Virus record (IMG/VR): IMGVR_UViG_3300049489_000283
Span: 1-64,000 of that record
Length of the DNA stretch: 64,000 bases
From: a virus
Reading direction: 5' to 3' (one strand)
Under the pieces are notes generated by a model. The model ran no database searches and was not told the DNA's origin. It was given only the letters and a program-made list of their open reading frames with translations. Each line of letters starts with the position of its first letter. Position 1 is the first letter of the stretch. Made by a program: the position numbers and the translations under genes. Shown here one piece after another: positions 16,613-35,777 of the stretch.

Positions 16613-18385
16613 ATGCGATTGAGCCACTTGGTTCAGGGTCTGACAAGGACCGCGTCCAGCGCGACATCGCGACGGAAATCCTTGAGTCTGGTTGAGGAAC
16701 CGGCTGTTGATCGTGGCGCCATGAGCGCCACGGCAACCATCTGCACGGACATTGTCGATCACCAGCGAGAGGTGATCCTAGCGTCCGGGGTGCGACAAGA
16801 TCATTACATGAACAACCCCGTGGTTCTGTACGAGCACGGGGAGAACATCACGTTCGATCATCCGCTGGCGTATGCCGAGGATGAGCAGGGCAACTACACG
16901 GTCTGGCTCGACGGCGATCTCGTCATGGAAGGCACAGCTCACTTCAAGAAAGTGGGCTCCGTGTTCCCGATCGTCTACCAGTATTTCGGCTTGATCGACC
17001 TGGGCGTGCTTCGCGCCGTATCGATCCACGTTCAGCCGCTTCCGGGCGGTCTGGCTGTTTACCGAGACAGCGACGGCCAGAAGTATCAGGTGACCGAGAA
17101 GAGCGACCTGATCGAGTGGTCGTGGTGCAAGATTGGGGTCAACCCGGAAGCACTCCGGAAGGCCAAGCGGTTTGGCTCGAAACTCAACCCGGTCTTCTCT
17201 GATCCGATGATCCGCGCTGCGACGTTGCAAGCGGACCTCGCGGCTGCTGTTCTAAGACGAGATTCGATTGGCAACGAAAAGCTGCTGGAGCCAATCAGGA
17301 AAAGTCTCCTAGCAATGACGAGGACTGGTTCCTCCCTAACACTCAAGGATTCTGTAATGGCACGGAAGGCATTGACCACCAACCAGATTCGGTCTCTCTC
17401 GAAGGAAGAGCTGCGAGACATCGTCTCCAACAAGATGGGTCTCTACGACGCCCGGACGTGCCGTCAGCTCAAGTCGATGTACGCCAAAGTCCAGAAGGAC
17501 AATGGCGAGGACGTTGAGGACGAAGAGAGCGAAGATGAATTCCATCACGGCGCTGGCCCTGAAAAGGAAAGCGACCAGGAGGTTCCCGAGAAGAAGGTTC
17601 CTCCCAAGAAGAAGCCAGCCGCTCCTGTAGAGGGCGAGGAGGTCGAAGGCGAGGCAGTCGAGGGAGTTCCGCCCAAGAAGCCAGCAGTCCCGGCAGCTCC
17701 CGCTGTTCCTCCGGCACCTGGGGCGCCAGTGCCTCCCGATCAGAAAGCGAAACAAACACCGGCACCGGCGGCAGCTCCTGCGGCTCCCGCCGCCCCGGCC
17801 AAGCCAGTGATGGATTTTGGTGGCGAGCAGCCGCTGGGATCGAACATTCTTTCTCAGCTCTACGAAGCGCTGACCTACCTGCTTGACAACGCCGAAGGCG
17901 CCATGAAGCCGGTTGAGAATCCGGACGTGAAGGGCGGCATGGGTGAAATCATGACCCAGGCCCGCGCGATCCAGTCGGCGGTTGATGGTCTGCACCAGTC
18001 GGCTTACGGGACGAGTTTCGCCCAACCGGCCCAGGAAGAGCAAGACGAGGAGAAGCTGATCTTCGGGAAGCTGAAGAGCTTCTTGTCGAGCCGTGAGAAC
18101 CAAGTCGAAGGTTTCCAGGTGCTTGGCTATGAGGGGCAGCTCCGCCGGTTCTCGCAGCGCAAGGACGTGCCTGAGCCAGTCCGCAAATCACTCAGCTCGA
18201 TGTCCACCGGTTTGTCTGCGATTCGAAAGAGCGCGATGAGCGAGTCTTTCAGCCAGATCAGCAAGTCGGACTACGACGCTGTCGTTGCTCAGCGGAACGC
18301 CGCTGTTGCTGAACGTGACGCTGTGGCCAAGAAGCTGAGCGTTGCGATGGACTGGTTGGAGAAAGTTACTCCAGCCAGTGAATGA
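16613..18385 (+). CDS. HK97-type prohead protease fused to a scaffold-like C-terminal region
   Basis: VDHQREVI, YMNNPVVLYEH, LRAVSI, LIEWSWCKIGVNPEAL. Acidic/Pro-rich linker and coiled coil. Directly upstream of the capsid gene. Confidence 0.85.
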   Translation: MRLSHLVQGLTRTASSATSRRKSLSLVEEPAVDRGAMSATATICTDIVDHQREVILASGVRQDHYMNNPVVLYEHGENITFDHPLAYAEDEQGNYTVWLDGDLVMEGTAHFKKVGSVFPIVYQYFGLIDLGVLRAVSIHVQPLPGGLAVYRDSDGQKYQVTEKSDLIEWSWCKIGVNPEALRKAKRFGSKLNPVFSDPMIRAATLQADLAAAVLRRDSIGNEKLLEPIRKSLLAMTRTGSSLTLKDSVMARKALTTNQIRSLSKEELRDIVSNKMGLYDARTCRQLKSMYAKVQKDNGEDVEDEESEDEFHHGAGPEKESDQEVPEKKVPPKKKPAAPVEGEEVEGEAVEGVPPKKPAVPAAPAVPPAPGAPVPPDQKAKQTPAPAAAPAAPAAPAKPVMDFGGEQPLGSNILSQLYEALTYLLDNAEGAMKPVENPDVKGGMGEIMTQARAIQSAVDGLHQSAYGTSFAQPAQEEQDEEKLIFGKLKSFLSSRENQVEGFQVLGYEGQLRRFSQRKDVPEPVRKSLSSMSTGLSAIRKSAMSESFSQISKSDYDAVVAQRNAAVAERDAVAKKLSVAMDWLEKVTPASE

Positions 18386-18478
18386 GCCTGTTGCGAGTGG
18401 ACTTGCTCGCGACGAATTTTCAGAAACCAACACGTTGGGCCTTTAAGGAAAGTCTTCTAAGACAAGGACGTTTGACAG

Positions 18479-19825
18479 ATGAGCCAAGTACCTGTAGCGG
18501 AACGATTCGAGAAGCTCGTGGAGCGACTGGAGAGTCTCGAAAACACTCACCTCACTCGACAGCCAAAGTCGTACAGCTCGCTCAGCTACTTCGAAGGTGG
18601 CGAGACGATTCATGTCGATCCTTCGAACGTCCGTCGATCTCGACGCGATTCGGAACGACGCGGCAGCGCGTTGCTCCGTATGAGTGATCTGGTTGAAGGC
18701 GGCTACGATTCGAAGTTCAAGAGCTACTCTTCGGCTCGCGCGAACTTCGGTGAGTTCCTTTCCGGGATCGCTGCGGTTGGTAACAACCCAAACAGCGAAG
18801 CTGCTCGTCGGTTCACCGAGCGATACGATGCTTCCAAGAAGTCCTTGCTGGGTGCTCTGAAGAGCCAAGTGAAGGCCATTGGTTTGAACACCTTCGAAGC
18901 CGATTCCGCTGGCTCGCTGGTGCTTCCCGAATTCAGCTCGACGCTGATGCAGCGAGACTACACCAACGACATTTGGGGCCGCACCGACAACTACACGGTG
19001 ACCGGCAACCGGATGACGTTCCCCAAGAGCAAAGATGAAGACCGACGCGACGGCAAGCGTGCTGGTGGTCTCCGGGCTTTCTGGAAGGGTGAAGAGCAGT
19101 TGCTCGAATCGAGCCGACCCGGCGTCGATAGCGTCGAACTCAAGTTGAACAAACTTGCGGTTGTCGTCTACGTCACCGAAGAGCTGCTGGATGACTCCAG
19201 CTACGCTTTGGTCGAATACGTTTCGAACAAGGTCCGCGAGGAGCTTGACTTCGCGACGGGTGACGCCGTGTTCCGTGGCGATGGCATTGGCAAGCCGACC
19301 GGCTTCCTGAAGAGCCCCGCCCGTGTGACTGTCTCCAAGGAAGGCGGTCAAGCCGCTGCGACCTTGACCGGCAAGAACATCCTTGAGATGTACCGCCGAC
19401 GTGTGGCCAACCGCACGAAGGAGTACGTTTGGTTCACCAACCAGAACATCGAAACCCAGTTGCACACCATGCAGCTCGGGACAGGTGAAGCCAGTGTCTT
19501 GGCTTACCATCCATCCAACGGCTTGTCGGCGGCTCCGTATGGCACGCTGCTTGGCCTGCCTGTGATTCCAACGGAGTTCTGTGAGACGCTGGGCACCGAA
19601 GGCGACATCTGCTTGGTTGACCTGGGCAAGTACCTTTCGATCAGCAAGGGTGGCGTCACCGAGGACAACGACACGAGCGTTGAGTGGCTGCGGGATCAGG
19701 TGGCCTACAAGTTCACCATGCGTCTCGATGGCCGTCCTTGCGACGATTCGCCGATCATCCCCTACAAGGGACATGCGGTGAACGACACTCAAAGCGCTTT
19801 CATCACGCTGGAAACCCGAGCCTAA
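18479..19825 (+). CDS. Major capsid protein, HK97 fold
   Basis: AGSLVLPEFS, W.GEEQ, KLAVVVYVTEELLDDS, GDGIGKPTGF, TLLGLPVI, DQVAYKF.MRLDG. Confidence 0.95.
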   Translation: MSQVPVAERFEKLVERLESLENTHLTRQPKSYSSLSYFEGGETIHVDPSNVRRSRRDSERRGSALLRMSDLVEGGYDSKFKSYSSARANFGEFLSGIAAVGNNPNSEAARRFTERYDASKKSLLGALKSQVKAIGLNTFEADSAGSLVLPEFSSTLMQRDYTNDIWGRTDNYTVTGNRMTFPKSKDEDRRDGKRAGGLRAFWKGEEQLLESSRPGVDSVELKLNKLAVVVYVTEELLDDSSYALVEYVSNKVREELDFATGDAVFRGDGIGKPTGFLKSPARVTVSKEGGQAAATLTGKNILEMYRRRVANRTKEYVWFTNQNIETQLHTMQLGTGEASVLAYHPSNGLSAAPYGTLLGLPVIPTEFCETLGTEGDICLVDLGKYLSISKGGVTEDNDTSVEWLRDQVAYKFTMRLDGRPCDDSPIIPYKGHAVNDTQSAFITLETRA

Positions 19826-19882
19826 TTCGGCTTGGGTCTGAACTGAACGGAAAACCAACTTCACAATTTTTGAGATAGAGAG

Positions 19883-20422
19883 ATGGCACACGACCCTCAT
19901 GATTTGGTAATTGGCGGCAGCGTGGTTCAAGCCATTCTGCCAATCGACTTCGACAATCAGGCGCGGAACGGCGTCTGGGCTGACATGGCTGCCACGGAAG
20001 CCTTGTCGGTGGTTGTCGTGCTGGCAGCTCCTGGATCGGCTGGAGTTGGCCCGATCATCACGCTGGAACAGGCCACTGATTCGGCGGGATCTGGCGCGAA
20101 GGCGCTGAGCATCGTTGATGCTCGGTACTTGAAGGCTGCGGACATCCAGGCTCCGTCGGCCAGCGAGCTGTGGGCTGAGATCACGGCAAGCCGGACTTCG
20201 CCGCTTGCATCGTGGGATGCGGACGACGTTGGTGGTGACATCGCTGAGCTGATGGTCGTGATCACGATTCGTCCGGCTGACCTCGACATCAACAACGGAT
20301 TCCGTTGGGTGCGAGTGAAGACGGTCAATGGCGACTCGGCGGCAGCCCGCTTGGGTCAAGCGATGTACATTGCGAAGGATCGCAAGTACCAAGGTGATGC
20401 CAAGCCAAACCTGCTTGGCTAA
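19883..20422 (+). CDS. Probable capsid decoration/cement protein
   Basis: Directly after the capsid gene. ITLEQATDSAGSGAKAL...DLDINNGFRWV. Confidence 0.6.
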   Translation: MAHDPHDLVIGGSVVQAILPIDFDNQARNGVWADMAATEALSVVVVLAAPGSAGVGPIITLEQATDSAGSGAKALSIVDARYLKAADIQAPSASELWAEITASRTSPLASWDADDVGGDIAELMVVITIRPADLDINNGFRWVRVKTVNGDSAAARLGQAMYIAKDRKYQGDAKPNLLG

Positions 20423-20462
20423 GCTGACAGTTGAACTTTTGATTGTGTGGTGTAAACAATTA

Positions 20463-20491
20463 GCCGGGGGAAGGGATGCCCCCGGCTTTTT
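20463..20491 (+). terminator. Intrinsic terminator
   Basis: GCCGGGGG-AAGGGATG-CCCCCGGC-TTTTT. Confidence 0.75.
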
Positions 20492-20511
20492 GCGTTTCAT
20501 GACTAAAGGGA

Positions 20512-21336
20512 ATGGGAATGAGCACGGCGCTAACGCTTTTGTCGGACTACCATGTGCGATCGTTGATCGCCAGCGGGACTTACGAGAAGTCCTATATCCT
20601 GACGCGACTGCTGACCTATGCGGACGCTGCTGATGCAATGCTTGAGCCGCTTCCGAGCGATGTCGCCAATATGGTGCTCGGCTGGCTTCCGCAGGATTTT
20701 GTCAGGAACGCATTGAGTGCGTCCACAGCCGAGAGTCGCGTTGGATACTTGATCGCGCAGGCGACTGACTGCTTGATCTGCTTGGAGGATTGTCGCTGTG
20801 CGCTGAATGAGCAGCACGAGCGAGAGGCGAATGAGCGAGCGGCTCATGAGGCTGAGTTGGCCCGTCAGGCCGAAGAGGCTGCGAGGATTGAGCGAGAGGC
20901 TCAGGAAGCAGCGGATCGACGACTTGAGGAAGCCAAGGCCGCTCAGGTTGAGGAGCGAAAGCGATTGGCCAGGGAGGCTGCTGAGCGAGCCAAGCGGATT
21001 GCAGATCAAGAGGCCGCACACCGCCGTCGCGCTCAGGAAGAGCTGAAGCGTAGCGATGACGTGATCGCTTCTTCGGAGCCGAGTGAGTTCGTTGGTGAGT
21101 TCGTTGGATACTCTGAGGCTGAAGCTCATGCGATGCCTATCGAGAAGAGTGGCCTGCCGGTCGGGGTGGTCAACACTCTCGCCAAGATGAACCTGAAGAC
21201 CGTTGGTCAGTTGATCCTTTATGGGGAGACAGCGAGCTTCACGTCGATCGCGGGGATCGGGGAGTCTTCTGCCCAGCGGATCAAGGCGCGAATCGACGAG
21301 ATTGTTTCCAGTATCAGAACGAGCGGTGATGCCTGA
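20512..21336 (+). CDS. Coiled-coil protein with a C-terminal RNA-polymerase alpha-CTD-like/HhH domain
   Basis: MPIEKSGLPVGVVNTLAKMNLKTVGQL....FTSIAGIGESSAQRIK. Confidence 0.65.
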   Translation: MGMSTALTLLSDYHVRSLIASGTYEKSYILTRLLTYADAADAMLEPLPSDVANMVLGWLPQDFVRNALSASTAESRVGYLIAQATDCLICLEDCRCALNEQHEREANERAAHEAELARQAEEAARIEREAQEAADRRLEEAKAAQVEERKRLAREAAERAKRIADQEAAHRRRAQEELKRSDDVIASSEPSEFVGEFVGYSEAEAHAMPIEKSGLPVGVVNTLAKMNLKTVGQLILYGETASFTSIAGIGESSAQRIKARIDEIVSSIRTSGDA

Positions 21337-22142
21337 TGTTCGTCAAACTCTCGGAAGCAAAGGCGGCGATCGGTGGCGATGTCTCTGACGAGAGCGCGAT
21401 CAGTATCGCTGCTGGCATCTCGGAGTCGCTGAGCAAGGCCTGCAATCGCGTATTCCCCAGGCTGGTTGAATCGATCGCAATCAGTGGTTCTCGGGCGGTA
21501 GTGACATCGTACTGGCACGGGCTGCACCCTGGTGATCGGATTCGTGTGAATACGATGGCCGGTGGGACTCCTCTGGATATTGGAGACGTGACGGTTGGCC
21601 CCGGTGGCTACAGCCGGGATACGTTCGAGATTGAGACCAATGCCTCTGCGTTTGACCCGGCGATTGCGGGCACGATCACGTTCCGCAAGGTTCGGATGCA
21701 GGTATTCAGGACTCGTGGCGAGCCAAGCGTCTTTGTTCCGTGGAGGCCGCTAGAGAGTGTGCTCAAGCTGGAAGTCCGGTCTTCCAGTGATGTATGGGAA
21801 GAGGTTCCGGCTGATGAGTTCGCGATCTCGGGCGAGCACGATGGATTGTCGCTGACCGGTGAGGTTGAGCGGATCGGCAAGGCGTTCCCGTGTGGTCGCG
21901 ACAACGCGGCTGTTCCGAACGGTGCGAGGGTGACTTATGTTGCGGGTGATCCATTTGTGAGCCCGGACATTCTCTACGCGACGATCAATCTGATCGCGGC
22001 GGCTACCGACCGTAACAAGCGAGCAGAGTTCCAGAGCCAAAGCTACGACTACTATTCGTACTCTCGAATGAGTTCGTCAGAGATCGGAAAGCTCTTTGGT
22101 GAAGCTGATCGAATCGTGATGGAATACAAGATCCCCGTCTGA
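21336..22142 (+). CDS. Head-tail adaptor/connector protein
   Basis: FVKLSEAKAAIG, RPLESV..LEV, VTYVAG...PDI..A; position after the capsid genes. Confidence 0.7.
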   Translation: MFVKLSEAKAAIGGDVSDESAISIAAGISESLSKACNRVFPRLVESIAISGSRAVVTSYWHGLHPGDRIRVNTMAGGTPLDIGDVTVGPGGYSRDTFEIETNASAFDPAIAGTITFRKVRMQVFRTRGEPSVFVPWRPLESVLKLEVRSSSDVWEEVPADEFAISGEHDGLSLTGEVERIGKAFPCGRDNAAVPNGARVTYVAGDPFVSPDILYATINLIAAATDRNKRAEFQSQSYDYYSYSRMSSSEIGKLFGEADRIVMEYKIPV

Positions 22143-22180: not shown

Positions 22181-24961
22181 TTGTCACAAGGAAGGACGGC
22201 GCGAGGTATCACGGTGGATAGGACGCAGCTTGAGGATCTGTACAAGATCCTTCCGGGGATCACGTCAGCGGCACTGTATCGCCGTGGTGAAAATGGCGAG
22301 TACGACCCTGCGCAGCCGTTCCTTGCATCTGCTGTTGAGCAGCGACCGATCGACATCAAAGAGGAGGGTCTCTTTGAGGGAGTCTCGGGTGAGGTTGAGC
22401 GATGTATCTGGCACGTTTGGGTGTCGAGTCTCACGGCGCCATGGCAGCCGACGTTCAGTCCAACTGGCGTGAAGATCGTGCGCCACTGGATCTTGAAGGA
22501 GAAAAGCGGGAAGGAGTGGGTCGTGGTGTCGTCCACGATCGAGATGTCCCGGACTCGCTGGAGACTGGTGTGCATCGAGTACCTGGGCGATCCGATCATC
22601 AACATCGTCAACGCTCCAGGGTCAGGGAAGAACAGTTCGGCGCCGTCAACTCCAGTGGTGGTGCCTCCTCCTCCGCCGGTGATTACCGATCAGCCAGACG
22701 ACGTGACGGTGGACCAGGGACAGACGGCGACGTTCACCGTGGTCGAGACTGGTGGCAGCAGCTACCAGTGGTTCGTGGATACCGGAAGTGGGTTCGTGGA
22801 GATCCCAGGTGCGACAAGTGTTTCGTACACGACGCCGCCGCTGGCTGTCGGCGACGATGGGAATCAGTACCGCCTTGTGGTCAACAGCTCTGGTGGGGCT
22901 GTGACCAGCGATCCGGCGACTCTCACCGTGGTCCCGATTGCTCCGCCGTGGATCAATGTTCACCCGAATGACCAGACTGCCGCTTCGGGCAACACCGCGA
23001 CATTCACGGTGGTGGCTACTGGCGCTGGTCCGCTGTCCTATCAGTGGCAGCTCGATAGTGGGAGCGGGTTCGCCAACATCGTTGGAGCAACCTCTGCCTC
23101 GTACACGACACCGGCTTTGGTCGAGTCAGAGGATGCTTGGTATTACCGGTGCGTAGTTAGCAATGTCGGCGGAAGCACGACCAGCAACCCTGCCAGCCTT
23201 GAGGTGTGGGCAGTGTTCGATCACTACATCACGAGCCAAGCAGAGCTGGATTCGTTCGGGGTGGGCGGAACTGGAGAGTCGATTGGGATCAGGCGAGGGC
23301 TGTCGCTTGTCGGCCAGCTCAATGCGAGAGGGAACGTGGGCGCGTTCGGCTCTGGCTCGCCTCCTGTGATCAGTGCGTTCAAGACGGCAACTGGACCATG
23401 GACGCAAAACGGCACCTACCCGGTGGTCTACCAAAGAGACTGGGATGTGTCGGCGCTGACGGTAGACATTTCGCGACTGAACCTGATTGTCAACGAGCAG
23501 TACATCACCCGCGTGACAAGCCTCGCGCTGTGCGCTTCGACTCCGGGCTCGTATTACAACGACAATGTCGGCCTCGCAACGGATGCGAATAACCTGCGGG
23601 AGATCTATTACCACCCAGCCGGAAGTACCAATCCAAATTCCGATGGCCGAGTGGTGCGGATCACGGCTTTCGATCACGCCATCGGCTTGGTCGGTCCTTA
23701 CACGATCACCGGGATCGAGGCGGACGGGAACACGCACGACAACGGGACGATCTTCACTACCCAGCAGAAGAACTTCGCTGGTGAATCTCCGTTGCCGCAG
23801 ACGCTTCAGCGGGTGCTGGCTCGTCGCGGGACGAAGCACACGGTCCTGATCGGATCAGGCGAGATCCTGGACTCCGTCTTCCACTTGCATGACAAGACGA
23901 CCACAGAGGAGCCAGCCAACGGGATCGTGGGGGTCTATGAGAATAATGTGACTGGTCTGTCTGCCGAGGTCCGAAACTCGCACATCGTCAGTTGGGAAGG
24001 GGCAACAACGCGATACCCAGGTGCAGCCCAGCAGGGCACGATGCACTCATCGGACCTGTCGGTCTACGACTCCTGGAAGTGCTACGGGAGTTCGATGCGT
24101 GGCTGCAACGGAGATACGTGGGGCGGTGGGCTTGATGCTTCCTGTGACGGCTTGTTCTTTGATCGGTGTTCTTCTGTGTCACCGATTGCGAACCAGTCGC
24201 CCACGAGCGTGGGTGATCAGTGCGTGATGGATCGTGTGCTTGCTCGGCACACTCTAGCGCTGAGCGAAATTTCCAACGGGATTGTGTACGGTCGGACCTA
24301 CTCGACCTGGAACAACTTCTGCGCGGCAATGGCTGCCGACTCCGGTGCGACGTTCCCGATGTTCATGTTCCTGCAAGAGGCGTACTGGACGTTCAACAAT
24401 GCGTGTCTGGTATCCACGACCTCTGGAACTGGCTGTGTGTTCTTTGCGGGCGGCGGCGCTGGAAACCGCGAAGTCACGTTGAACAACAGCTTCCTTTTCA
24501 CACGAGGATATAGAGCTGCCTACACACTGACTTCGATTGGAGGCACGCGAAACCTGATCATTACTCGGGACGCGAGTCCTCCGACGAACGTGGACAACTT
24601 CAACTACACCGTGAACCTGTGGGTGAATCAGACGAATGTGGCGAGCAAGCTGTCTACCTTGGGGCTGGTGACCAGCGGCAATGCAATCACGGATGTCTAC
24701 AACTTCGCCAACGCTTGCTTGCTGAATGGAATTGCCGGAGCATCGAACGGTGACTTCCGGCTCAATCCGCTGGTTGACAACCTTCAGTTCGGCGATGGCC
24801 AGTATCTCGGTGACCACAACGTCGGTGCGCAGAGCCACTGGGATTACAACGCTCAAGCGCCAGCATCAGGACCGCCGTCTCGCTGGCCGGTTCCGCCGGT
24901 CTCTCTGGCCGATGCGCGGGCGTTCATCAGCAGCCCGGCAAGCTGGAACTTCTACCCGTAA
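22181..24961 (+). CDS. Virion protein: probable head-closure-like N-domain, two Ig-like domains and a beta-rich C-terminal domain
   Basis: PVITDQPDDVTV..GQTATFTV...SYQW..D.G.GF..I.GATS.SYTTP occurs twice. Start codon uncertain (TTG 22181 or a nearby GTG). Confidence 0.7.
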   Translation: MSQGRTARGITVDRTQLEDLYKILPGITSAALYRRGENGEYDPAQPFLASAVEQRPIDIKEEGLFEGVSGEVERCIWHVWVSSLTAPWQPTFSPTGVKIVRHWILKEKSGKEWVVVSSTIEMSRTRWRLVCIEYLGDPIINIVNAPGSGKNSSAPSTPVVVPPPPPVITDQPDDVTVDQGQTATFTVVETGGSSYQWFVDTGSGFVEIPGATSVSYTTPPLAVGDDGNQYRLVVNSSGGAVTSDPATLTVVPIAPPWINVHPNDQTAASGNTATFTVVATGAGPLSYQWQLDSGSGFANIVGATSASYTTPALVESEDAWYYRCVVSNVGGSTTSNPASLEVWAVFDHYITSQAELDSFGVGGTGESIGIRRGLSLVGQLNARGNVGAFGSGSPPVISAFKTATGPWTQNGTYPVVYQRDWDVSALTVDISRLNLIVNEQYITRVTSLALCASTPGSYYNDNVGLATDANNLREIYYHPAGSTNPNSDGRVVRITAFDHAIGLVGPYTITGIEADGNTHDNGTIFTTQQKNFAGESPLPQTLQRVLARRGTKHTVLIGSGEILDSVFHLHDKTTTEEPANGIVGVYENNVTGLSAEVRNSHIVSWEGATTRYPGAAQQGTMHSSDLSVYDSWKCYGSSMRGCNGDTWGGGLDASCDGLFFDRCSSVSPIANQSPTSVGDQCVMDRVLARHTLALSEISNGIVYGRTYSTWNNFCAAMAADSGATFPMFMFLQEAYWTFNNACLVSTTSGTGCVFFAGGGAGNREVTLNNSFLFTRGYRAAYTLTSIGGTRNLIITRDASPPTNVDNFNYTVNLWVNQTNVASKLSTLGLVTSGNAITDVYNFANACLLNGIAGASNGDFRLNPLVDNLQFGDGQYLGDHNVGAQSHWDYNAQAPASGPPSRWPVPPVSLADARAFISSPASWNFYP

Positions 24962-24973
24962 CGGAGGCGTGAA

Positions 24974-27900
24974 ATGTCAGGGAATGATTGCGGGGCTAAC
25001 GCGCCTGGTGGTGGAGGATTTCAACCAGGGAACGACTGCGCTGGTGGAGGTGGATCGTTAGCGACATCCACGAAGACCGAGGGCGGCGTCACGTTCGAGA
25101 CTGGTAAGTCGGTCACGTTTGATTTCATGCGCAACACCGAGAAGTCACACAAGCCAGGGAAGACGGATCAGTTCCAGCAGAAGATTGAGCCAGCGGGGCG
25201 GTATCTGCTTCATGATTCGATCAAGAGTGGCAAAGAGGGGAAGCTGTCAGCCGGATGGGAATCTGGGAGCGTGACCTTCAAGAGTCCATTGGTGTTGAGG
25301 GTGAACACGAGTGACGACGCGATCTATGACGACAACTCTTGGAAGAAGCGTCTGAGCGCCCACTACGGCGGCAAGGTCGGCAAGAAGCTGAGCGAAGCGG
25401 TCGTTAAGGATGGTTACGACGGGATCGTGACTGTCGATAAGTACGGGACCAGCGAGATCGTTGACCTGACAGGGGTCAGTGTTTCGGGAAAGAAGAAGTC
25501 TGTTGGTTCAAGCTGTGGCGCCAATGCGCCCGGCGGTGGCGGCTTTCAGCCAGGGAACACCTGCGCTAGCGAGGGTGGTGGTGGATCGGATGGTAGCTAC
25601 ACCAAGCCGCACCGGGACGCTCGTGATCTGCCGACGGACGACGAATTTGAGAAGTACCTTCGGGACAACGCGGACCAGTGGCATCTGAGGCCGGACGGGA
25701 TCGACGACATCCTTCACAGATACCGTCGCAGCAGCGTGAAGGACAAACTGCGGACGCTGGACGCTTCCGAGTTCCCTATCAAGGAGAACAACGAGAAGCC
25801 TGAGACCGAGATCAAGGGCGACAAGAAGACCGAGAAGATGCGATTGCTCCCGAGCCGCGAGGATGTGGACCGGATCTCACGGGACGGCGCTGACGGGACG
25901 ATCAAGCCGGACGACACGATCTTCGTGCGTCATCAGACGACATCGAAATGGGAGAAGGAGTTCGTTGAGCACGGGATCGATACCCGATCAGCGCCGCCGG
26001 ATTCTCGGCTGGGGCGGTTGACCAATGTGGATGGGAATCTGGTTCAGTCGCGGATCAACGCGCCGGGGCTTTACGTGGAGCCATCGCAGGACGACCACAA
26101 CTACGGGGTGATCATTCAGGTCCAGGCGAAAGACATCAAGCCAAGCGTGGAGAGCAAAGGCCTTGGATACGAGACTGGTCTCGATGGTTTGTACCAAGTG
26201 AAAGACGCGGTCATCGAAGGCAGAGTGATCGCGCCCGAGGAGGTGGTTGGCGTTTACAAGTGGGACAGCTCTGCGAACAAGGCGGTCTGGGTTCCGAATC
26301 CAAGGAATCCGAACTCCGGGATGCTGGATGTTCAGGACGGTCGTCTTGCGCTGAAGGGCCACGAGCAGAAGAAAGCCTTCTCGATCAAGAAGCACTACCC
26401 AGGAGGTCAGGACCACGACCAGGGCAATCACGCTGGTGATGGTGGCAGCGCTACCGCTTCTGAGGGCAAACAGTCGGAGCATGTCCGACAGTGGGCGAAG
26501 AGCCGATTCGGAAGCGAGGAGACAGCGGAGCGATTCGCCTCATGGTTCGGTGAGTCGAAGGTGACGGACCAGGATAAGAATCCGATGGTTGTCTACCACT
26601 CTACGAGCGCGAAGGATGACTTCTCGGAGTTCAAGACGGACGGAGTCGGCGCTCACTTTGGGACGCTGGGGGCTGCGGATGCGCGTTCATCGCATGTGGA
26701 GAAGTTTGCCAAGAATCACCTGCTGCGCGAGCCTGGACCGGCAAGGCTGATGCCTGTTTATCTCAGCATTGAGAATCCGCTGGAGATGCCCGATCTGGCT
26801 GGCTTGTACAAGAACATGAAAGGCGAGCTGGTTCCAAAGGATGAGGTTGATGATCGGCTAGACGAGTTTTACCAGGAAGACAGGGATAATCCTCGTCGTC
26901 CGCAACCTATGGCATGGGAGAACGAGGGAGATTTCTCGACCTATCTGAGAGACAGAAACATCATCACGTCGAATGAACTGTGGGATGTCATGTACGACAA
27001 GGACAAGGCCGTTGAGCTACTGAAGGAGAAGGGCTACGACGGGATCGTTTATAAGAACGCTGTCGAGGACGCTGGCAGTGAGTCCTACATCGTGTTCGAT
27101 CCTGAGCAGGTCAAAAGTGCTGTCGGGAACGATGGAAAGTTTGACTCTGGCTCTGGCGACATCCGCAAGTCGTACCAGAAGAAGTCATCGAGCTGTGGAG
27201 CGAACGCACCGGGAGGTGGTGGATTTCAACCTGGGAACGACTGCGCTTCTGAATCTGGAGGCGGTAAATCGGGCGGCGGTAAATCCTCTGAGCGTGTTCG
27301 CGCGTGGGCAAAGGATCGGTTTGGAGACGACAGCAAAGCAGAGAACTTTGCTGTCTGGTTTGGCGAGTCGAAGGCGGTGGATGACGATGGCGACCCAGAG
27401 GAGACGGTCCCGATCGAGGTTTACCACGGGACGACGCACGACTTCGATGAGTTCGATCTGAGCAAGACCAACCCTGAATCTGACATGGGAGGCGGGTTCT
27501 ATTTCTCCAGCGATCGCGGTGACTCCCAGGGGAACTACGGCTCCGACGGACCCGACCTGACCCAGCGGATCGAGCTGATGGCGGAGCAGATCGAGTACGA
27601 CATCGATGCGGAGAACATGACAGCCGAAGATCTTGCTGATCAGTTCGAGATCACGGTCGAGCAGGCGGAGTCTGTGCTTGAAGAGGCTGAAGGCGACAAC
27701 CGTGAAGCAGCCAAGCTGGTCGCCACCGCGAAGCTGGATGGAGGCAACGAGAAGGTGCTGTCGGTCTTCCTAAAGATCGAGAAGCCTGTGTTTGTCGGTG
27801 ACCCGAAGTGGGGCAAGGGGTCACGCCGACCGGCCAGTGGCGAGACGTTCTTTGATGTGGAGTACAGCGAAGAGGATGCTGAGGGCCGGACTCCAGACGA

Positions 27901-30900
27901 CGACGACTTCGACCCAGACACTGCGGAGTTTGGTGAGCCAAAAGGAAAGCTCGTTGATTTCATGGAGGCGCTGAGAAGCGAAGCGTCCGATCGCGGCTAC
28001 GACGCGGATGACCGGATCGAAGAGTTAATGCAGATTGCGATGGAGAATGAAGGCATGAGGGCAGGGGAGATCCTGTCCAGGGTCAAATCGCTGGACGTGT
28101 TTATGGACTCGCAGCGAGATGACGGGAGGTTTGAAGGTGGCGACATCATGGCAGCGGCGCTGCGGCGCGCTGGATTCGATGGGCTTGTCTACATGGATGC
28201 TTCGGAGCATTTCCCGAATTTCGGAGTGCGCAGCGGGCAGCCGATACCAGAGGGGACGCGGCACTACGTGGTGTGGGACTCCAAGCAGATCAAGTCATCG
28301 GACGAGAATGAAGGGACGTTTGATCCAGAGAATCCGAGCATCAGGAAGGCGCTGCCAGCCAGGAAGAAGAGCAGCGATTGTGGCGCAAATGGTCCAGGTG
28401 GCGGCGGGTTCCAGCCAGGAAATGATTGCGCATCATCGGGTGGTTCTTCCGGCGGTGGCGTGGATCGCGACAAGTTCATCGATTTCATGAAGCATAAGAC
28501 GAGCTACGGTGACGAGCAGGTCGCCGAGGTGGTGAAGAATCCGTCAAAGCAAACCATGAAACGGTTTTATCTTGAGAGCAGCAGCCGGTACGGATCTGAG
28601 CCGCTGCGCGGTTTTGCTGGTCGCAACGGCGACCTGTACGTCTGGAGCGATCCGACGTTTCTTCATGACACCGCTGACTATGAGATCGGCGATATGGTCG
28701 GACCATACAAGAAGGTGCTGCTTTGGATGAACAAAGACGGAGCAGTAACTGGCTACTCGGGAGGGCAGGTTGAGGACGAAGGCGATGGCGACAGCTTGAA
28801 GAAACTGATGGAATCACACGCGGGCTATCAGGCGGTCAAGAAATCGATCAAGGGAAAACGCAAGAGTTCCGACTGCGGAGCCAATGCGCCGGGAGGTGGT
28901 GGATTTCAGACCGGTAACTCGTGCGCGTCGGGAGGTGGTGGAGGCGGCGCTACAGGCGACGGACGCCGAAGGCCAAAATTCGACAACCCGCGAATGAGGG
29001 AAGGTTACAACGAATTGCAGGAGGAGTTCCACAAGATCCCGGCGACCGCTCGCGCCAAGTTCTTCGAGGAGTACAAGAAGGGCGGCAAGGCAAGAGACAA
29101 GGCGATCGAGATCGCCAAGGAGAACGGCTTGGACGCTGAGAAGATCCATGCCTACATGAAGGCCGAAGACGAACTGGCCCGCAACGAGAAGGAGCGGAGA
29201 GCCTACGAGCGATCTGGTCCCGAGTATGCGCCGGACGTTGAGGGCAACAGGTCGAAGAATCCACAGGTCCAGTCGCCTGAGTTCAAGCAGTGGTTTGGCG
29301 ATTCGAAGATCGTCAACGAGGACGGATCGCCACGGGTTCTGTTCCACGGGACTCGCGCGGACTTCAATGAGTTCGAAGTGTCGGATGACGGATTGGTGAA
29401 TGAGACGATGGGTGTCCACGTCGCCAAAGATCCCAAACTGACCGATGCGTTTTCTGTCGGCACCTACGCGGCCAGTTCAGCGTGGAGTGAGGGGGAGGAC
29501 GCGGTCAAGACTCGGAGCAAGGATGGCCACCGAATACCCGACATGATCAAGCCTGGAGGCAATACCAAGCCGGTGTTCGTCAAGATGGAGAAGCCGTACA
29601 TCATGCCGAACTACGGCTCGATGGATCAGCACAACATCCGGATCGATGTCTTCGACAAGGTCTTCCGTGAAGACAAAAACGCTTTCATCCATTTTGCGAC
29701 TTCAACCCGCAACGTGAGTCCCGAAGAAGCCGAGGACGCTTACGAGCGACTCAGTAGGAATGAGCCGATCGAGAACGGAAACCTCTCGGTTCCACAGTCC
29801 TACATCGACGAGTATGGCAGCGGGTTCGCTGGCTTTGCTTCCAACTACAGCCCAGAGTTTGCTCCGGACTACAAGGGAAAAGACTGGAAGAACTGGGCCG
29901 GGAAGCGGTACAAGGAGATCATGGTCTCGCAGGGCTACGACGGGATCATCTACGAGAACACCAGCGGCAATGAGGTGGGCCACGACGGCAAGATCGATCA
30001 CACGTCCTACATCGTGTTCGATCCAAAGAACATCAAGAGCGCCACGGGGAACGAAGGGAAATTCAATCCCGAGTCGGCTGACATTCGCAAGTCGATGAGG
30101 CATCTGCTTTCGCCATCTCATCAGCGATGGCTGCGTGGCCAGATGAAGCGTTTCGTCGCTCAAGTCAAGGCGAGCGAATGTGGAGCCAATGCGCCGGGCG
30201 GGGGAGGATTCCAGCCGGGCAACACTTGCGCTGGCGAGGGCGGCGGCACAGCGACCGATGAGATGCCAGGGTTCATCAACAAGGAGACGCTGAAGAAGAA
30301 CAAGTCGCTGGTCGAGGATCTGTTTGGCCCGGACTTCTATGAGTTCGCGATAAAGCAGAAGGAAGGGACTCCATTCCTCAATGCCTGGGCTGCTTTCACG
30401 CTGAAGGATTCGGTGAAAGACAAGTCACCACGGCGGCGCATGGATGTCACCAAGAGCCCGGCTTTCAAGCGATGGTTTGCCGATTCGAAAGTGGTGAACG
30501 ACGACGGAAAGCCGCTGGTTGTCTACCACGGCAGCGGCAACTTGATTACCGAGTTCAAGACTGATTTGGACCTTGGCCCAGAGCGGGCCAACGCGGCGTT
30601 CTTCAGTAGTTCTCCATCTGTGAGTAGTGGGTACGCAACATACGAGACGACGGAGGAGAAGCTGCTTTCAAAGCAGGTTTCCGATATTTATGCCGATCAG
30701 TACAACGACTGGATGGAACTCGGATACAGCTCTCTCCCTGGTGAAGACGCTCGGGTCCGCATTGCCAACGATCTGCTTGATTCTGGAGAGATCACCAGAG
30801 AGACGTACGACCGCTTGGGTAGCTACGATGATCGGATGTACGACCTTGGACAAACAAAGATCAAGGATGGGACGCCGAACCTGACTCCCGTCTATTTGAG

Positions 30901-32374
30901 TCTCAAGAATCCGATGGTGGTCGATGCGAATGGCATGTCGTGGGATTTTGTTGTTGAACAGACGCTTCAGAGAGTGGATCGTTCTGTCCATGACGGAGTG
31001 ATCTTCAAGAACGTCAATGACAACGCCAATGATTCGAGCGAGTTGGCGACCACCTACGCAGTATTCGATCCTGAAAACATCAAGAGCGCAACGGGTAATT
31101 CTGGTGACTTTGATCGATCATCCAGGGACATCAAGAAGGCCATGCCTCCCATGATTAAATCGATGAACATCTATTCGCACGGTCTTCTGCTGGAGCTACA
31201 GGAGGAGATCGAGAACTTTGTGTTCGACACGGATCGCTCGTGCGGCGGCATGTGTGACCCGGTGGTTCGACACTGCATCGGCCACGTCTGCGATGACCTG
31301 TCAGACATGCTGGACGAGATAAACGACCTGACCGAGTTCGTTTACGGGAACAGCCCGAAGATGAAGTCGGCTGACTGTGGCGCTAACGCGCCAGGCGGCG
31401 GCGGCTTCCAGCCTGGGAATGATTGTGCGTCGGGCGGCGGCGGCGGTCGGTGGCGGCTTCCCACGAGCGACACCGAGCTGGTCAGCCTTGAAGGGGCTCC
31501 CGCTGAGGGCGACCAAGTCTATCTTGGCGAGGAAGAATACCGGGTCATGCGGGTCTACTCGGACGGCAAGATTGGTGTGCTCGGTCGCAAGAACGGTGAC
31601 GCCAAGAAGGTTGAAGCTGGCGACCTGAAGAAGCTGGTTGACAAGAAGAAGGGTTCTGGCTCCAGCAAGGCAGACGAGATCTTCGGGAAGAGCAAGCCGC
31701 CAACGGTCGCGATCGGCAAAGGGTTTGAGTCGGCGCGGGCCGGTGTTTTGACATCGTTGGGGATTCCCAGGAACACGACCAACGAAGAGCTGGCCAAGTT
31801 GTGCGGTTACCGGGACGACACCACCGAGGTGATGGTCTCGCACGAGAGTCGCCCATCCAAGCTGGTGATGTCGTCTTACGGCCCAGGGTACAGGAACATC
31901 CGGCAGCTAACCCGCGACGAGAACGGCGATCTGGTGCTCAAGAACGTGATCTTCACGGTGGACGAGGACTATCAGAAGAAGGGGATCGGCGCTGAAGTGT
32001 TCTCCCGTCAGGTCGAGCAGGCCAGGAAGATGGGGGTCAAGCGGATCGAGACCAACGCGCTGCGGGCCGACGACGAGGATGGGAAGCCCGGAGGGGAGGC
32101 CAATGGGTACGCGACTTGGCCGAAATTTGGCTACGACGCCCATATCAACATGAAGGACATGGCCGGGATCGAGGACACGCTGAAGAAAGGCCTCAAGAAG
32201 AATCCCGAGTACAAGAACGTCACTAAGATTTCCGAGATCATGAAGACGCCGGAGGGTCGTGAGTGGTGGACCAAGTACGGGATCACGTTCGACATGGAGT
32301 TCGATCTGAGTGATAACTCGCACTCCATGAAAATCTTCAATGCCTACATGGAGGCCAAAAGGAAGAAGAAATGA
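24974..32374 (+). CDS. Large polyvalent protein: multiple ADP-ribosyltransferase-fold (ART-PolyVal-like) domains, a C-terminal GNAT and seven CGANAPGGGGFQPGNxCA repeats
   Basis: Four copies of WF(G/A).SK....G.P...(Y/F)H(G/S)..PV(Y/F)L....P..G(Y/F)DG..Y..Y.VFD...IKS..N.G.F. GNAT motif YQKKGIG...NGY.TWPKFGY. Confidence 0.85.
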   Translation: MSGNDCGANAPGGGGFQPGNDCAGGGGSLATSTKTEGGVTFETGKSVTFDFMRNTEKSHKPGKTDQFQQKIEPAGRYLLHDSIKSGKEGKLSAGWESGSVTFKSPLVLRVNTSDDAIYDDNSWKKRLSAHYGGKVGKKLSEAVVKDGYDGIVTVDKYGTSEIVDLTGVSVSGKKKSVGSSCGANAPGGGGFQPGNTCASEGGGGSDGSYTKPHRDARDLPTDDEFEKYLRDNADQWHLRPDGIDDILHRYRRSSVKDKLRTLDASEFPIKENNEKPETEIKGDKKTEKMRLLPSREDVDRISRDGADGTIKPDDTIFVRHQTTSKWEKEFVEHGIDTRSAPPDSRLGRLTNVDGNLVQSRINAPGLYVEPSQDDHNYGVIIQVQAKDIKPSVESKGLGYETGLDGLYQVKDAVIEGRVIAPEEVVGVYKWDSSANKAVWVPNPRNPNSGMLDVQDGRLALKGHEQKKAFSIKKHYPGGQDHDQGNHAGDGGSATASEGKQSEHVRQWAKSRFGSEETAERFASWFGESKVTDQDKNPMVVYHSTSAKDDFSEFKTDGVGAHFGTLGAADARSSHVEKFAKNHLLREPGPARLMPVYLSIENPLEMPDLAGLYKNMKGELVPKDEVDDRLDEFYQEDRDNPRRPQPMAWENEGDFSTYLRDRNIITSNELWDVMYDKDKAVELLKEKGYDGIVYKNAVEDAGSESYIVFDPEQVKSAVGNDGKFDSGSGDIRKSYQKKSSSCGANAPGGGGFQPGNDCASESGGGKSGGGKSSERVRAWAKDRFGDDSKAENFAVWFGESKAVDDDGDPEETVPIEVYHGTTHDFDEFDLSKTNPESDMGGGFYFSSDRGDSQGNYGSDGPDLTQRIELMAEQIEYDIDAENMTAEDLADQFEITVEQAESVLEEAEGDNREAAKLVATAKLDGGNEKVLSVFLKIEKPVFVGDPKWGKGSRRPASGETFFDVEYSEEDAEGRTPDDDDFDPDTAEFGEPKGKLVDFMEALRSEASDRGYDADDRIEELMQIAMENEGMRAGEILSRVKSLDVFMDSQRDDGRFEGGDIMAAALRRAGFDGLVYMDASEHFPNFGVRSGQPIPEGTRHYVVWDSKQIKSSDENEGTFDPENPSIRKALPARKKSSDCGANGPGGGGFQPGNDCASSGGSSGGGVDRDKFIDFMKHKTSYGDEQVAEVVKNPSKQTMKRFYLESSSRYGSEPLRGFAGRNGDLYVWSDPTFLHDTADYEIGDMVGPYKKVLLWMNKDGAVTGYSGGQVEDEGDGDSLKKLMESHAGYQAVKKSIKGKRKSSDCGANAPGGGGFQTGNSCASGGGGGGATGDGRRRPKFDNPRMREGYNELQEEFHKIPATARAKFFEEYKKGGKARDKAIEIAKENGLDAEKIHAYMKAEDELARNEKERRAYERSGPEYAPDVEGNRSKNPQVQSPEFKQWFGDSKIVNEDGSPRVLFHGTRADFNEFEVSDDGLVNETMGVHVAKDPKLTDAFSVGTYAASSAWSEGEDAVKTRSKDGHRIPDMIKPGGNTKPVFVKMEKPYIMPNYGSMDQHNIRIDVFDKVFREDKNAFIHFATSTRNVSPEEAEDAYERLSRNEPIENGNLSVPQSYIDEYGSGFAGFASNYSPEFAPDYKGKDWKNWAGKRYKEIMVSQGYDGIIYENTSGNEVGHDGKIDHTSYIVFDPKNIKSATGNEGKFNPESADIRKSMRHLLSPSHQRWLRGQMKRFVAQVKASECGANAPGGGGFQPGNTCAGEGGGTATDEMPGFINKETLKKNKSLVEDLFGPDFYEFAIKQKEGTPFLNAWAAFTLKDSVKDKSPRRRMDVTKSPAFKRWFADSKVVNDDGKPLVVYHGSGNLITEFKTDLDLGPERANAAFFSSSPSVSSGYATYETTEEKLLSKQVSDIYADQYNDWMELGYSSLPGEDARVRIANDLLDSGEITRETYDRLGSYDDRMYDLGQTKIKDGTPNLTPVYLSLKNPMVVDANGMSWDFVVEQTLQRVDRSVHDGVIFKNVNDNANDSSELATTYAVFDPENIKSATGNSGDFDRSSRDIKKAMPPMIKSMNIYSHGLLLELQEEIENFVFDTDRSCGGMCDPVVRHCIGHVCDDLSDMLDEINDLTEFVYGNSPKMKSADCGANAPGGGGFQPGNDCASGGGGGRWRLPTSDTELVSLEGAPAEGDQVYLGEEEYRVMRVYSDGKIGVLGRKNGDAKKVEAGDLKKLVDKKKGSGSSKADEIFGKSKPPTVAIGKGFESARAGVLTSLGIPRNTTNEELAKLCGYRDDTTEVMVSHESRPSKLVMSSYGPGYRNIRQLTRDENGDLVLKNVIFTVDEDYQKKGIGAEVFSRQVEQARKMGVKRIETNALRADDEDGKPGGEANGYATWPKFGYDAHINMKDMAGIEDTLKKGLKKNPEYKNVTKISEIMKTPEGREWWTKYGITFDMEFDLSDNSHSMKIFNAYMEAKRKKK
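24989..31429 (+). repeat. Seven dispersed in-frame 54-nt repeats encoding CGANAPGGGGFQPGNxCA
   Basis: Copies start at 24989, 25514, 27194, 28379, 28874, 30179 and 31376. The peptide is nearly invariant while codons differ synonymously. Confidence 0.95.
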
Positions 32375-33907: not shown

Positions 33908-34849
33908 ATGGCATGTATTACCAACGTCCCACGTAGTCACAAGTTCGGCGTCACTGCCTTCGGTGACTTCAACGCCACCAACGGCACCGCCGTCAGCTCG
34001 GTTTTTCGCCAGATCAGCAACGGTCTTTCGACGACCCCCGTGTTCGAACAAGACGAAGGCCACAACGGCACGCCGTTCTACGCTTCCGAAGGTGTGGTGA
34101 AGACATCTGAAGCCGGTTCCGGCAGCGTGGTTCTCCAGCCTCGCGCCGACGAGCTGCGGGTGATCCTTCCGCTGTTGCTCGGTGGCACGTTTGCGGGGAA
34201 CATCATCGAGCCGGACATCAATGGCTACTGCCAATACTTCAAGGCGTCCCGCGACGTGAAGGTGGCGGTGTTCGAGTTCCTGAACTGCAAGACCAGCCAG
34301 TGGACGCTCTCCAGCAGCCGGAGCCAATCAAAGCTACAGCTTGACTGGGGTATTGAGGCTTGCGGCAGCGCACGGCAGGCGGCTGGCACGTTCCCGGTCC
34401 TGAACTTCAGCACGCAGCCTCCGTTTGTTCACACATCGTCCACGTTCACGATCGACGGTCGTGTGGTCCCGGTGGATGATGTCCAGCTTTCCGGCAACAA
34501 CAACTTGACCACCGATTTGTTCTACAACTCGGTGACCAGGACGGCGCTGCCAGCCGGTCGTCAGATGTTTACCTTGACGGCAACCAGCCCATTCGACACC
34601 AGCCTGGACTTGGCTTGGATGGACATTGCTTCGGCCAGCGTGGCTGCTAGCATCGTCTACACGACGGCGTCCGGTACGCTGAGCCTGACGATCAACATCC
34701 CGGCGATGCACCCCGTGATCCCGACGCCTCAGACGCCAGCCGGTGAGCAGCCGGTGAGGTTTGAGCAGATTGTCTGGACAGCGCGATCCAAGGGGACCGG
34801 CGGGTCGTATCAAGCGCCGATTCGGTTTACGATCGACGACATCGTCTAA
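33908..34849 (+). CDS. Major tail tube protein
   Basis: 313 aa, beta-rich, no long acidic or coiled-coil segments. Lies upstream of the chaperone and tape measure genes. Confidence 0.7.
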   Translation: MACITNVPRSHKFGVTAFGDFNATNGTAVSSVFRQISNGLSTTPVFEQDEGHNGTPFYASEGVVKTSEAGSGSVVLQPRADELRVILPLLLGGTFAGNIIEPDINGYCQYFKASRDVKVAVFEFLNCKTSQWTLSSSRSQSKLQLDWGIEACGSARQAAGTFPVLNFSTQPPFVHTSSTFTIDGRVVPVDDVQLSGNNNLTTDLFYNSVTRTALPAGRQMFTLTATSPFDTSLDLAWMDIASASVAASIVYTTASGTLSLTINIPAMHPVIPTPQTPAGEQPVRFEQIVWTARSKGTGGSYQAPIRFTIDDIV

Positions 34850-35153: not shown

Positions 35154-35183
35154 CTCTTGATCGCAAGATCAGGGGCTCCCGAT

Positions 35184-35221
35184 CGGCTGGCCGGAGGTTG
35201 CGATTCCGGCCAGCCGTTTTT
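35184..35221 (+). terminator. Intrinsic terminator
   Basis: CGGCTGGCCGGA-loop-TCCGGCCAGCCG-TTTTT. Confidence 0.75.
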
Positions 35222-35234
35222 GTTTGGAGGGGCA

Positions 35235-35777
35235 GTGATTCGAGATACCTACGACCGGTTCGCCATCGTGGACCTGAAGCCGATCCATCTTCCTGACGTG
35301 ATGGAGATCGCAAGGCTGACCTATGGTGTTCAGCAGGAGAAGCGATTCTTCACCGGCAGGATCACCGCGATGAACTCCAAGAGTCTGGTTGCCCAGCAGG
35401 TGCTGACCGGAAGCCTGATGGGGTTCCTGATCTCGCATGTGTCTGGCAAGGACGTTCACATTTCGACGCTAGCGGTTCATCCATCGCACCGTAGGAGAGG
35501 CGTGGGCACGGCGATCTTGCAGCGCCTGATGGTGATGATTCCTGGGCAGGTAACCTGGACTGTGGCGAGAGAGTCGCGGCTGGAGTCGCATCGGTTTCTG
35601 GCTAGTGCTGGATTCCGAGCGGTGGCGGTTTCGCGTAGCCACTTCGATGACACTGGAGAAGACGGCTACCTGATGGTTCATAGTGCAAATGCAGAAGATA
35701 TGAGGTGGATTGATGGCGATCTGGGCCAGCGATTTCGCAAAGATGCTGCGACGGTTAAACGACGAAGCGATAGCTGA
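35235..35777 (+). CDS. RimI-like GNAT acetyltransferase
   Basis: ISTLAVHPSHRRRGVGTAIL...RES.L...RFL...GFRAV.V.R..F.DTGEDGYLM. Confidence 0.8.
   Translation: MIRDTYDRFAIVDLKPIHLPDVMEIARLTYGVQQEKRFFTGRITAMNSKSLVAQQVLTGSLMGFLISHVSGKDVHISTLAVHPSHRRRGVGTAILQRLMVMIPGQVTWTVARESRLESHRFLASAGFRAVAVSRSHFDDTGEDGYLMVHSANAEDMRWIDGDLGQRFRKDAATVKRRSDS

Follow-up and report, generated by a model that had tools for sequence, protein, structure and literature searches.

The first 64 kb of a 91.5-kb linear virus record in IMG/VR (IMGVR_UViG_3300049489_000283, estimated to be 85% complete; genome G000), here called the window, contain a gene for a putative effector polyprotein of 2466 residues, P0001 (24974-32374, +; a stop-free frame of 2466 codons), in which nearly every domain-sized module is headed by the same short loop peptide bounded by two cysteines. 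This peptide, the tag, is probably a cut-and-tag junction for capsid-carried proteins, because in hundreds of other uncultured phages the same peptide links portal or head-protease proteins to cargo. For P0001 itself, the sequence comparisons put at about an even chance the reading that it is a capsid-carried polyvalent effector polyprotein with cut-and-tag junctions, each mature cargo consisting of the loop, a flexible linker and one module. Its content appears to be four ART-PolyVal modules (ART, ADP-ribosyltransferase), one probable ART-fold module, two modules of no known family and a terminal GNAT domain.

Tag copies in the polyprotein

P0001 has seven copies of CGAN[AG]PGGGGFQ[PT]GNxCA, starting at residues 6, 181, 741, 1136, 1301, 1736 and 2135 (regular-expression search), in exact agreement with a first-pass annotation of the window. 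Tag 1, CGANAPGGGGFQPGNDCA, lies at 24989-25042 with the start codon five residues away. The other copies, all on the + strand, each follow a leader: tag 2 at 25514-25567 after KKKSVGSS, tag 3 at 27194-27247 after QKKSSS, tag 4 (CGANGPGG...) at 28379-28432 after RKKSSD, tag 5 (..FQTGNSCA) at 28874-28927 after KRKSSD, tag 6 at 30179-30232 after QVKASE, and tag 7 at 31376-31429 after KMKSAD. The annotation had reported a different leader at an eighth boundary (26393-26437, +), and direct reading finds it there as HYPGGQDHDQGNHAG, preceded by KKH. It looks like a decayed tag in which both cysteines have been lost, since the homologue P0061 has a canonical tag after its M2-like module, at the equivalent boundary (modules are numbered M1 to M8 from the N-terminus). 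A tag profile run on the whole 91.5-kb record gives no match outside the P0001 copies.

The copies are conserved as peptide and not as DNA. Among the 21 pairs of copies, 219 codon differences are synonymous and 26 non-synonymous, and mean nucleotide identity is 75.4%, as against 76.2 ± 1.0% for simulated copies whose synonymous codons were drawn randomly from the usage of the open reading frame (ORF) itself. Since the identity equals the random-synonymous expectation, the copies are old and constant as peptide; they have not been homogenised by gene conversion, and selection acts on the peptide, as the first-pass annotation had claimed.

Module arrays in related genomes

Scanning with a back-translated pattern also finds the tag in G001 (57 kb) and G002 (52 kb), both complete genomes of marine phages that have 6-7 copies apiece, as well as in 11 metagenome stretches and two contigs of metagenome-assembled genomes (MAGs). 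The few recognisable structural proteins shared by G000 with G001 and G002 are only 25-37% identical, whereas the tag is nearly identical. In G001 the array is spread over three overlapping genes, each of which opens with a leader followed by a tag. The portal homologue of G001 (L171; G001:7798-10572, -; 924 residues) has a tag at about residue 546, followed by a module of 360 residues. The portal homologue of G002 has 635 residues and no tagged extension. Module content and order differ between the two genomes, and the blocks of homology begin no more than 30 residues before a tag. Judged from these sequences, modules are shuffled at the tags. Comparison with other phages supports the proposal of an array of individually tagged modules, with one tag to a module and ahead of it, variable order and content, and modules that are fused or in separate genes.

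A repeat at which cassettes are swapped could be mainly a DNA-level recombination handle with no role as a peptide. The homology blocks that start at tags in G001 and G002 are consistent with this, as are the exact words of 20-44 bases common to their tags, and in these two genomes a handle function, as suggested in the first-pass annotation, may still apply. It does not hold in the window, where the tag copies share identical words with a median of only 10 bases, synonymous sites are fully randomised and the peptide is kept. A handle as the main function is largely refuted for the window and is very improbable overall.

The tag family

A profile built from 31 tag instances matches 294 clusters at E≤1e-3, 69 of them at E≤1e-10, among 1.84 billion protein representatives. 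The matches fall into a long form, C-G-A-N-x-P-G-G-G-G-F-Q-x-G-N-x-C, with 17 residues from Cys to Cys, and a short form, C-G-T-G-x-G-G-F-Q-x-G-N-x-C, with 14. Both forms have the core C-G-x(5-9)-G-F-x-x-G-N-x-C-[AG], followed by a Gly-rich linker. The short form alone is present in more than 120 IMG/VR stretches among the matches listed, which is a lower bound. Both Cys, the G-F and the G-N are invariant across more than 300 instances, and the second Cys is kept in all 304 instances that were loosely anchored. A search of IMG/VR for Cys-free tags (GGFQPGN with no x-Cys after it) returned chance matches only, such as DnaB helicases and wrong reading frames. Both cysteines are obligatory in the tag family.

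Strict conservation of the cysteines raises the possibility that the loop acts through its chemistry, by binding metal (two Cys per tag, with pairs of tags sharing one Zn), by forming a disulfide in the capsid, or by self-cleavage, and so tethers or releases the cargo with no need for a receptor. This would account for the invariance of Cys, G-F and G-N and for a sequence kept across very different phages, and the decayed copy in P0001 has a His near both former Cys positions. The loop matches no known metal-binding or self-cleaving motif, however, and AlphaFold2 (AF2) gives the tag no confident fold. Chemistry as the whole explanation seems improbable.

Placement of the tag is as regular as its sequence. 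Of 150 tag-bearing proteins, 90 have their first tag in the N-terminal 70 residues; the median length after the last tag is 275 residues, and the minimum spacing between tags is 128 residues. This placement and spacing mean that the tag heads a module, and it almost always stands in front of one of domain size. Comparison with other phages bears out what had been anticipated of the tag, namely that it precedes modules, is linked to head proteins and occurs with variable module order.

Cultured phages gave no match when tag peptides of 24-25 residues were compared with 50,697 phage records by tblastn, for which the low-complexity filter or the short query is a possible cause. Pseudomonas phage F116 has ART-PolyVal in common with P0001 and no tag. 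A long-form tag is present in a 709-residue ORF, behind a 2'-5' RNA ligase-like (2H) domain, on a 400-kb Pirellulaceae MAG contig (L025, CAYPXY010000001.1). The locus is possibly a prophage, and it may give a clue to the host.

Carrier proteins and cargo

Proteins in which the first tag is internal show what the tag is attached to. The part before the tag is a portal protein in 61 of 82 such IMG/VR proteins (lambda-type in 30, Phage_portal in 28 and Mu-type in three) and an S78 prohead protease in four. Where the tag is N-terminal, the gene just upstream encodes a portal in 9 of 28 cases, an S78 protease in four, a trypsin-like protease in two and MuF in one. The interior of the procapsid is where portal, MuF and prohead protease are all located, and the tag therefore marks a junction between an internal head protein and cargo. 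The virion-interior context assumed in the first-pass annotation is in this way supported from other phages, in which the tag follows these same three proteins.

The cargo consists largely of unclassified modules. Internal-first-tag proteins, mostly portal fusions, contribute 68 post-tag modules; a large majority have no Pfam family, 12 Pfam matches are to ADP-ribosyltransferase families, and among the families matched once are Zeta toxin, MuF, an XkdF-type protease, a lethal-factor-like peptidase and LPD1. A further 89 members of the tag family carry ART-PolyVal (17), MuF (6), Zeta (4), exotoxin ART (4), TopoIB (3) and GNAT (3), and also NUDIX, RelA/SpoT, ParB, RadC and others. By these family matches, the post-tag modules are the known polyvalent-protein repertoire.

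The association with head proteins could also mean that the loop is purely a capsid-targeting (cargo-loading) peptide, which would dock on scaffold, delta domain or the inside of the shell in the manner of the T4 capsid targeting sequence or the cargo peptide of an encapsulin, with several copies adding avidity. The tag is N-terminal in many stand-alone proteins, it lies five residues from the Met in P0001 and P0006, and P0001 has no other anchor recognisable by Pfam. Most internal tags, however, stand directly behind a portal or head protease that is incorporated anyway. A portal fusion needs no targeting, which argues against the tag being simply a capsid-targeting signal. A phage-specific receptor is also hard to picture for a tag that is invariant across three portal families and across capsid proteins 25-37% identical. 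Targeting as the sole function is unlikely.

Two further arrangements were seen among the carriers. At L035:1932-3509 (-), L104:2975-5287 (-) and L138:5191-6822 (+), the gene next after the S78 protease encodes a helix, a tag, a long Lys/Ala/Glu-rich coiled coil and an enzyme-like end (with HExxH in L035); these proteins look like scaffold-like cargo carriers. In L036:1653-4124 (+), a small conserved domain (residues 517-647) lies between portal and tag, with matches in haloarchaeal tailed viruses, Vibrio phages and Roseobacter phages that are annotated as prohead protease, portal or DUF2945.

A candidate cut site upstream of the tags

In the cut-and-tag reading each junction would have two parts. 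The first is a short basic site, Lys and then Ser or Ala, 2-8 residues before the first Cys, which we infer to be the cut site for the phage's own S78-type prohead protease. The second is the near-invariant loop, C-G-A-N-x-P-G-G-G-G-F-Q-x-G-N-x-C-A, followed by a Gly/Ser/Asp-rich linker. The polyprotein would be packaged into the prohead, cleaved after Lys and ejected into the host, and the loop would remain as the N-terminus of each released module. Stand-alone proteins that start with the loop, fusions to portal, MuF or protease, and arrays would all give the same product once cut before their loops. The Cys-loop may serve to dock the cargo within the prohead, to order its exit or lead it, or to bind a metal.

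A K-S or K-A pair 2-8 residues before the first Cys is found at all six internal tags of P0001, as the first-pass annotation had noticed, and the decayed tag is preceded by KKH. With a background of 10.3% for such pairs in P0001, all six tags would have one by chance with a probability of about 1e-6. In the family as a whole, 60% of tags have K and then S, A, N, T or G within the eight residues upstream (background 17.5%), and position -1 is D or N in 64%. The residue class upstream (K, E or N) is protein-specific and the loop is constant. Most multi-tag proteins have K throughout, P0018, P0021 and P0038 have E-S/E-A throughout, and P0080 and P0112 have N-A throughout. The majority-class fraction is 0.88, compared with 0.67 ± 0.016 after shuffling, and none of 5000 shuffles reaches 0.88. 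Coupling of a universal loop to a protease site that is specific to the lineage would be expected to give such protein-specific classes.

In G000, G001 and G002, K-S is commoner than expected in the polyproteins, in the protease/scaffold protein and in the capsid protein, there mainly in the N-terminal delta-like region; the window capsid has six K-S where 2.2 are expected. About 18 residues before a conserved 'PEF', the capsid proteins read V-K-A or M-K-A ('QVK-AIGL' in the window, 'VMK-AVQG' in G002), and one of the tag leaders reads AQVKASE. This is where the boundary between the delta region and the mature capsid protein is expected, presumably close to the position of the HK97 cut after Lys103.

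The probable protease is encoded at 16613-18385 (+), directly upstream of the HK97-fold capsid gene. The protein has an N-terminal domain of about 190 residues (approximately residues 25-215; family membership was assessed on 16613-17260), which is probably an S78-type prohead protease, and a long scaffold-like tail rich in K-S sites. ESM Atlas groups it with Peptidase_S78 clusters (0.95), and it matches the pre-tag domain of locus L113 (47 bits), which jackhmmer links to S78 proteases verified by Pfam; across the joint alignment one His and one Ser never vary. A PDB sequence search with this protein gives no match, and co-folding of the S78-like protease domain with the tag peptide scores 0.29, compared with a mark of 0.32. 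Elsewhere in IMG/VR, an S78-like ORF lies within the fetched stretch at 59 of 127 tag-bearing loci.

Several observations weigh against cutting at these sites, or against the reading as a whole. The Pfam S78 family is undetected in the window's protease candidate, by both genome search and domain scan. K or R at positions -5 to -2 is found in only 70% of IMG/VR tags, with a background of 43%, and it is the loop that is conserved and not the K site. An upstream Lys is as frequent before N-terminal tags as before internal ones, so the Lys may belong to the tag and not to a cut site; its absence from N-terminal tags would have supported a cut site and is not observed. Consistency of the upstream class within a protein could also come from common descent of the repeats. 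P0001 itself lacks a portal, MuF or peptidase domain, which leaves its entry into the prohead unexplained, and the AF2 predicted local distance difference test (pLDDT) score of the tag is below 50.

It may be that P0001 stays uncut and works as one giant multi-enzyme, with the tag as a structured spacer or hinge between domains. The N4 virion RNA polymerase (vRNAP) is packaged unprocessed. P0001 has no peptidase domain and a Gly-rich linker after each tag, and some polyvalent proteins are packaged uncleaved (Iyer 2017, PMC5512222). A spacer leaves unexplained, however, an invariant 17-residue loop with two obligatory Cys and a tag copy five residues from the N-terminus. Portal-fused cargo must moreover be released to exit the capsid, and tagged modules also occur as separate genes. 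An uncut polyprotein is accordingly quite unlikely.

A bolder form of the cut-and-tag reading is that the Cys-loop is an autonomous, portable cargo address used across very different tailed phages, kept on the released enzymes after the head-protease cut, where it would organise or lead their exit through portal and tail or tether them by a shared metal. We regard this as possible and put it forward tentatively.

Modules of the polyprotein

ART-PolyVal (PF18760) is found on P0001 with E 2.5e-64 in six stretches (Pfam). Modules M3, M4, M6 and M7 all score above the gathering cut-off of 31.2 bits, which sustains their earlier assignment to ART-PolyVal, and M1, M2 and M5 are unmatched. M3 (26438-27193, +) matches with E 8.1e-19 (69 bits). 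M4 (27248-28378, +; E 1.7e-16, 62 bits) has a large insert. M6 (28928-30178, +; E 3.4e-14, 54 bits) has a helical N-terminal part before the ART-PolyVal domain, and M7 (30233-31375, +; E 1.2e-18, 69 bits) has a Cys-rich tail after it. The end of M7 (31235-31330) contains a Cys/His-rich stretch, CGGMCDPVVRHCIGHVCDD, that is not in the other ART-PolyVal modules and may be a small metal-binding insert.

M1 (25043-25513, +) is a small module with no Pfam family. It has homologues in Gordonia phage Skog and in an uncultured Caudoviricetes record (tblastn, 43-45% identity). The first-pass annotation had called M1 ART-like, which finds no support: comparison with the ART-PolyVal profile by hhalign is negative, with a probability of 18% that covers the GYDGIV stretch only.

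M2 (25568-26392, +) has no Pfam family and is negative against the ART-PolyVal profile by hhalign, as is M5. Its AF2 model is mediocre (mean pLDDT 63). The leading Foldseek matches are almost all ADP-ribosyltransferase toxins, though weak (E 5e-3 to 0.5), and the ESM Atlas lead is TNT (0.91, at a low feature count). The signal is weak but consistent and makes a possible ART-fold (TNT-like) module a lead, so that the earlier description of M2 as ART-like is retained in this weaker form.

M5 (28433-28873, +; 147 residues) is, as first described, a module of no known family: it has no Pfam family, and among the 150 tag-bearing proteins it has no homologue outside its own cluster.

M8 (31430-32371, +) consists of an N-terminal part followed by a predicted GNAT-fold domain (approximately 31703-32371). 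The C-terminal 220 residues or so are modelled by AF2 with pLDDT 85-95, and the top Foldseek matches are all GNAT acetyltransferases (E 5e-5, probability 1.0). The Pfam Acetyltransf_1 match covers motif A only and, at 17.9 bits, is under the cut-off of 20.7. On these models the C-terminal domain is of the GNAT fold. M8 had been read as SH3-like plus GNAT, and the first half of this is not borne out, as pLDDT stays under 50 in tag 7, in the linker and in the presumed SH3 part, with no confident model for any of them. Homologues of the M8-type GNAT lie at the C-terminal end of at least nine tag-bearing proteins, and the domain is typically the last one, as in P0020, P0109, P0140, P0062, P0096, P0045, P0032 and L018; it could be an anchor or the terminal enzyme of the array.

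P0001 has neither an HExxH motif nor a peptidase family by motif search and Pfam scan; its relatives P0003 and P0006 carry HExxH.

Neighbouring genes

The gene at 18479-19825 (+) encodes an HK97-fold major capsid protein (phmmer to PDB 6tba/6tb9, the RcGTA capsid, E 6e-9). A 731-residue ORF on the opposite strand (18443-20638, -) has no family match and was rejected as a shadow ORF over the true capsid gene, typical of a genome with 57% GC. Downstream lie a head-tail adaptor-like gene (21336-22142, +; phrog_442, E 1.8e-5) and, directly 5' of the P0001 gene, a gene for a 926-residue Ig-domain structural protein (22181-24961, +; Pfam Ig_3, E 2.7e-12; PHROG tail/Hoc-like families). Two small genes separate the polyprotein from a tail-tube-like protein (33908-34849, +; Pfam Phage_tube_2, E 2.4e-14), which is syntenic in G001 and G002 by blastp. 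This gene order is also that of G001 and G002. The head-completion context given in the first-pass annotation is roughly right, with P0001 flanked by adaptor-like and Ig-domain genes on one side and, on the other, by a tail-tube-like gene.

Two other genes in the window encode recognisable enzymes. By PHROG matches, the gene at 14431-15429 (+) has one part like nucleoside 2-deoxyribosyltransferases and another that is a deoxynucleoside monophosphate kinase; it may be linked to modified-nucleotide metabolism. A stand-alone GNAT acetyltransferase gene without a tag lies in the tail region (35157-35777, +; Pfam E 1.8e-9).

Relation to known systems

Polyvalent proteins combine 2 to 15 unrelated effector domains in one phage or plasmid polypeptide, frequently, though not obligatorily, with a peptidase hub (zincin-like metallopeptidase (MPTase) or other) for self-processing (Iyer, Burroughs, Anand, de Souza and Aravind 2017, PMC5512222). 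Both these proteins and the MuF polymorphic toxins (Jamet et al. 2017, PMC5576092) are portal- or MuF-linked, and the DNA is believed to be packaged and delivered together with them. P0001 resembles them in being multi-domain, with its four ART-PolyVal modules, GNAT fold, probable ART fold and two modules of no known family. Head genes on one side and tail genes on the other flank the polyprotein gene in G000, G001 and G002, members of the tag family are fused to portal, MuF or S78 proteins, and the family carries the same repertoire of ART-PolyVal, GNAT, Zeta, RelA/SpoT, ParB, NUDIX and TopoIB. P0001 differs from polyvalent proteins in having no peptidase hub, zincin or MuF, and in the Cys-loop that heads nearly every module, with one boundary decayed.

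The words cysteine, glycine(-rich) and 'linker' are absent from the main texts of PMC5512222 and PMC5576092, the tag motif strings do not occur in a text search across some 8.4 million papers and preprints, and no Pfam model covers the tag in the P0001 scan (NCBIfam was outside this search). Polyvalent proteins and protease-processed capsid cargo are known, and the Cys-loop tag appears to be undescribed, in line with the first-pass annotation, which knew of no description of a tag-per-module design.

The internal proteins IPI-III and Alt of phage T4 have a capsid targeting sequence that is removed by the prohead protease gp21, of the S77 family, which cuts after Glu (LxE); there is one such sequence per gene. 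P0001 is like them in combining a short signal at the N-terminus with a site for a protease and with enzymes, an ADP-ribosyltransferase among them, that are packaged and injected; for P0001 all of this is predicted from sequence. Unlike the T4 signal, to which it has no sequence similarity, the tag is repeated inside a polyprotein, the candidate site is Lys-Ser/Ala, the candidate protease is S78-like, and the loop would stay on the cargo instead of being removed.

Polymorphic toxins have pre-toxin motifs, VENN in CdiA and DPxGL in Rhs, and the Rhs motif coincides with a processing site. These are also short conserved motifs at the start of swappable cassettes. They belong, however, to secreted bacterial toxins with one C-terminal cassette, whereas the tag is repeated before many modules and is unrelated in sequence. 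The cargo-loading peptides of encapsulins are usually C-terminal, have no Cys and have no association with portal or protease. Like the tag, they are short Gly-rich peptides with a flexible linker, and they address enzymes into an HK97-fold shell, as the tag may do.

Implications

Phages inject enzymes along with their DNA. To our knowledge, it is only in T4 and a small number of giant phages that the addressing of dozens of unrelated enzymes to the capsid, their cutting and their release are understood. One short peptide at the starts of cargo modules in hundreds of uncultured phages would offer a sequence handle with which to search metagenomes for injected effectors, the majority of which belong to no known family. 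It would also provide a testable model of head-protease processing in HK97-like phages, and the tag is possibly a tool for loading chosen proteins into phage heads. If the loop were indeed a portable address, it would be a general signal for loading and delivering foreign proteins via phage capsids.

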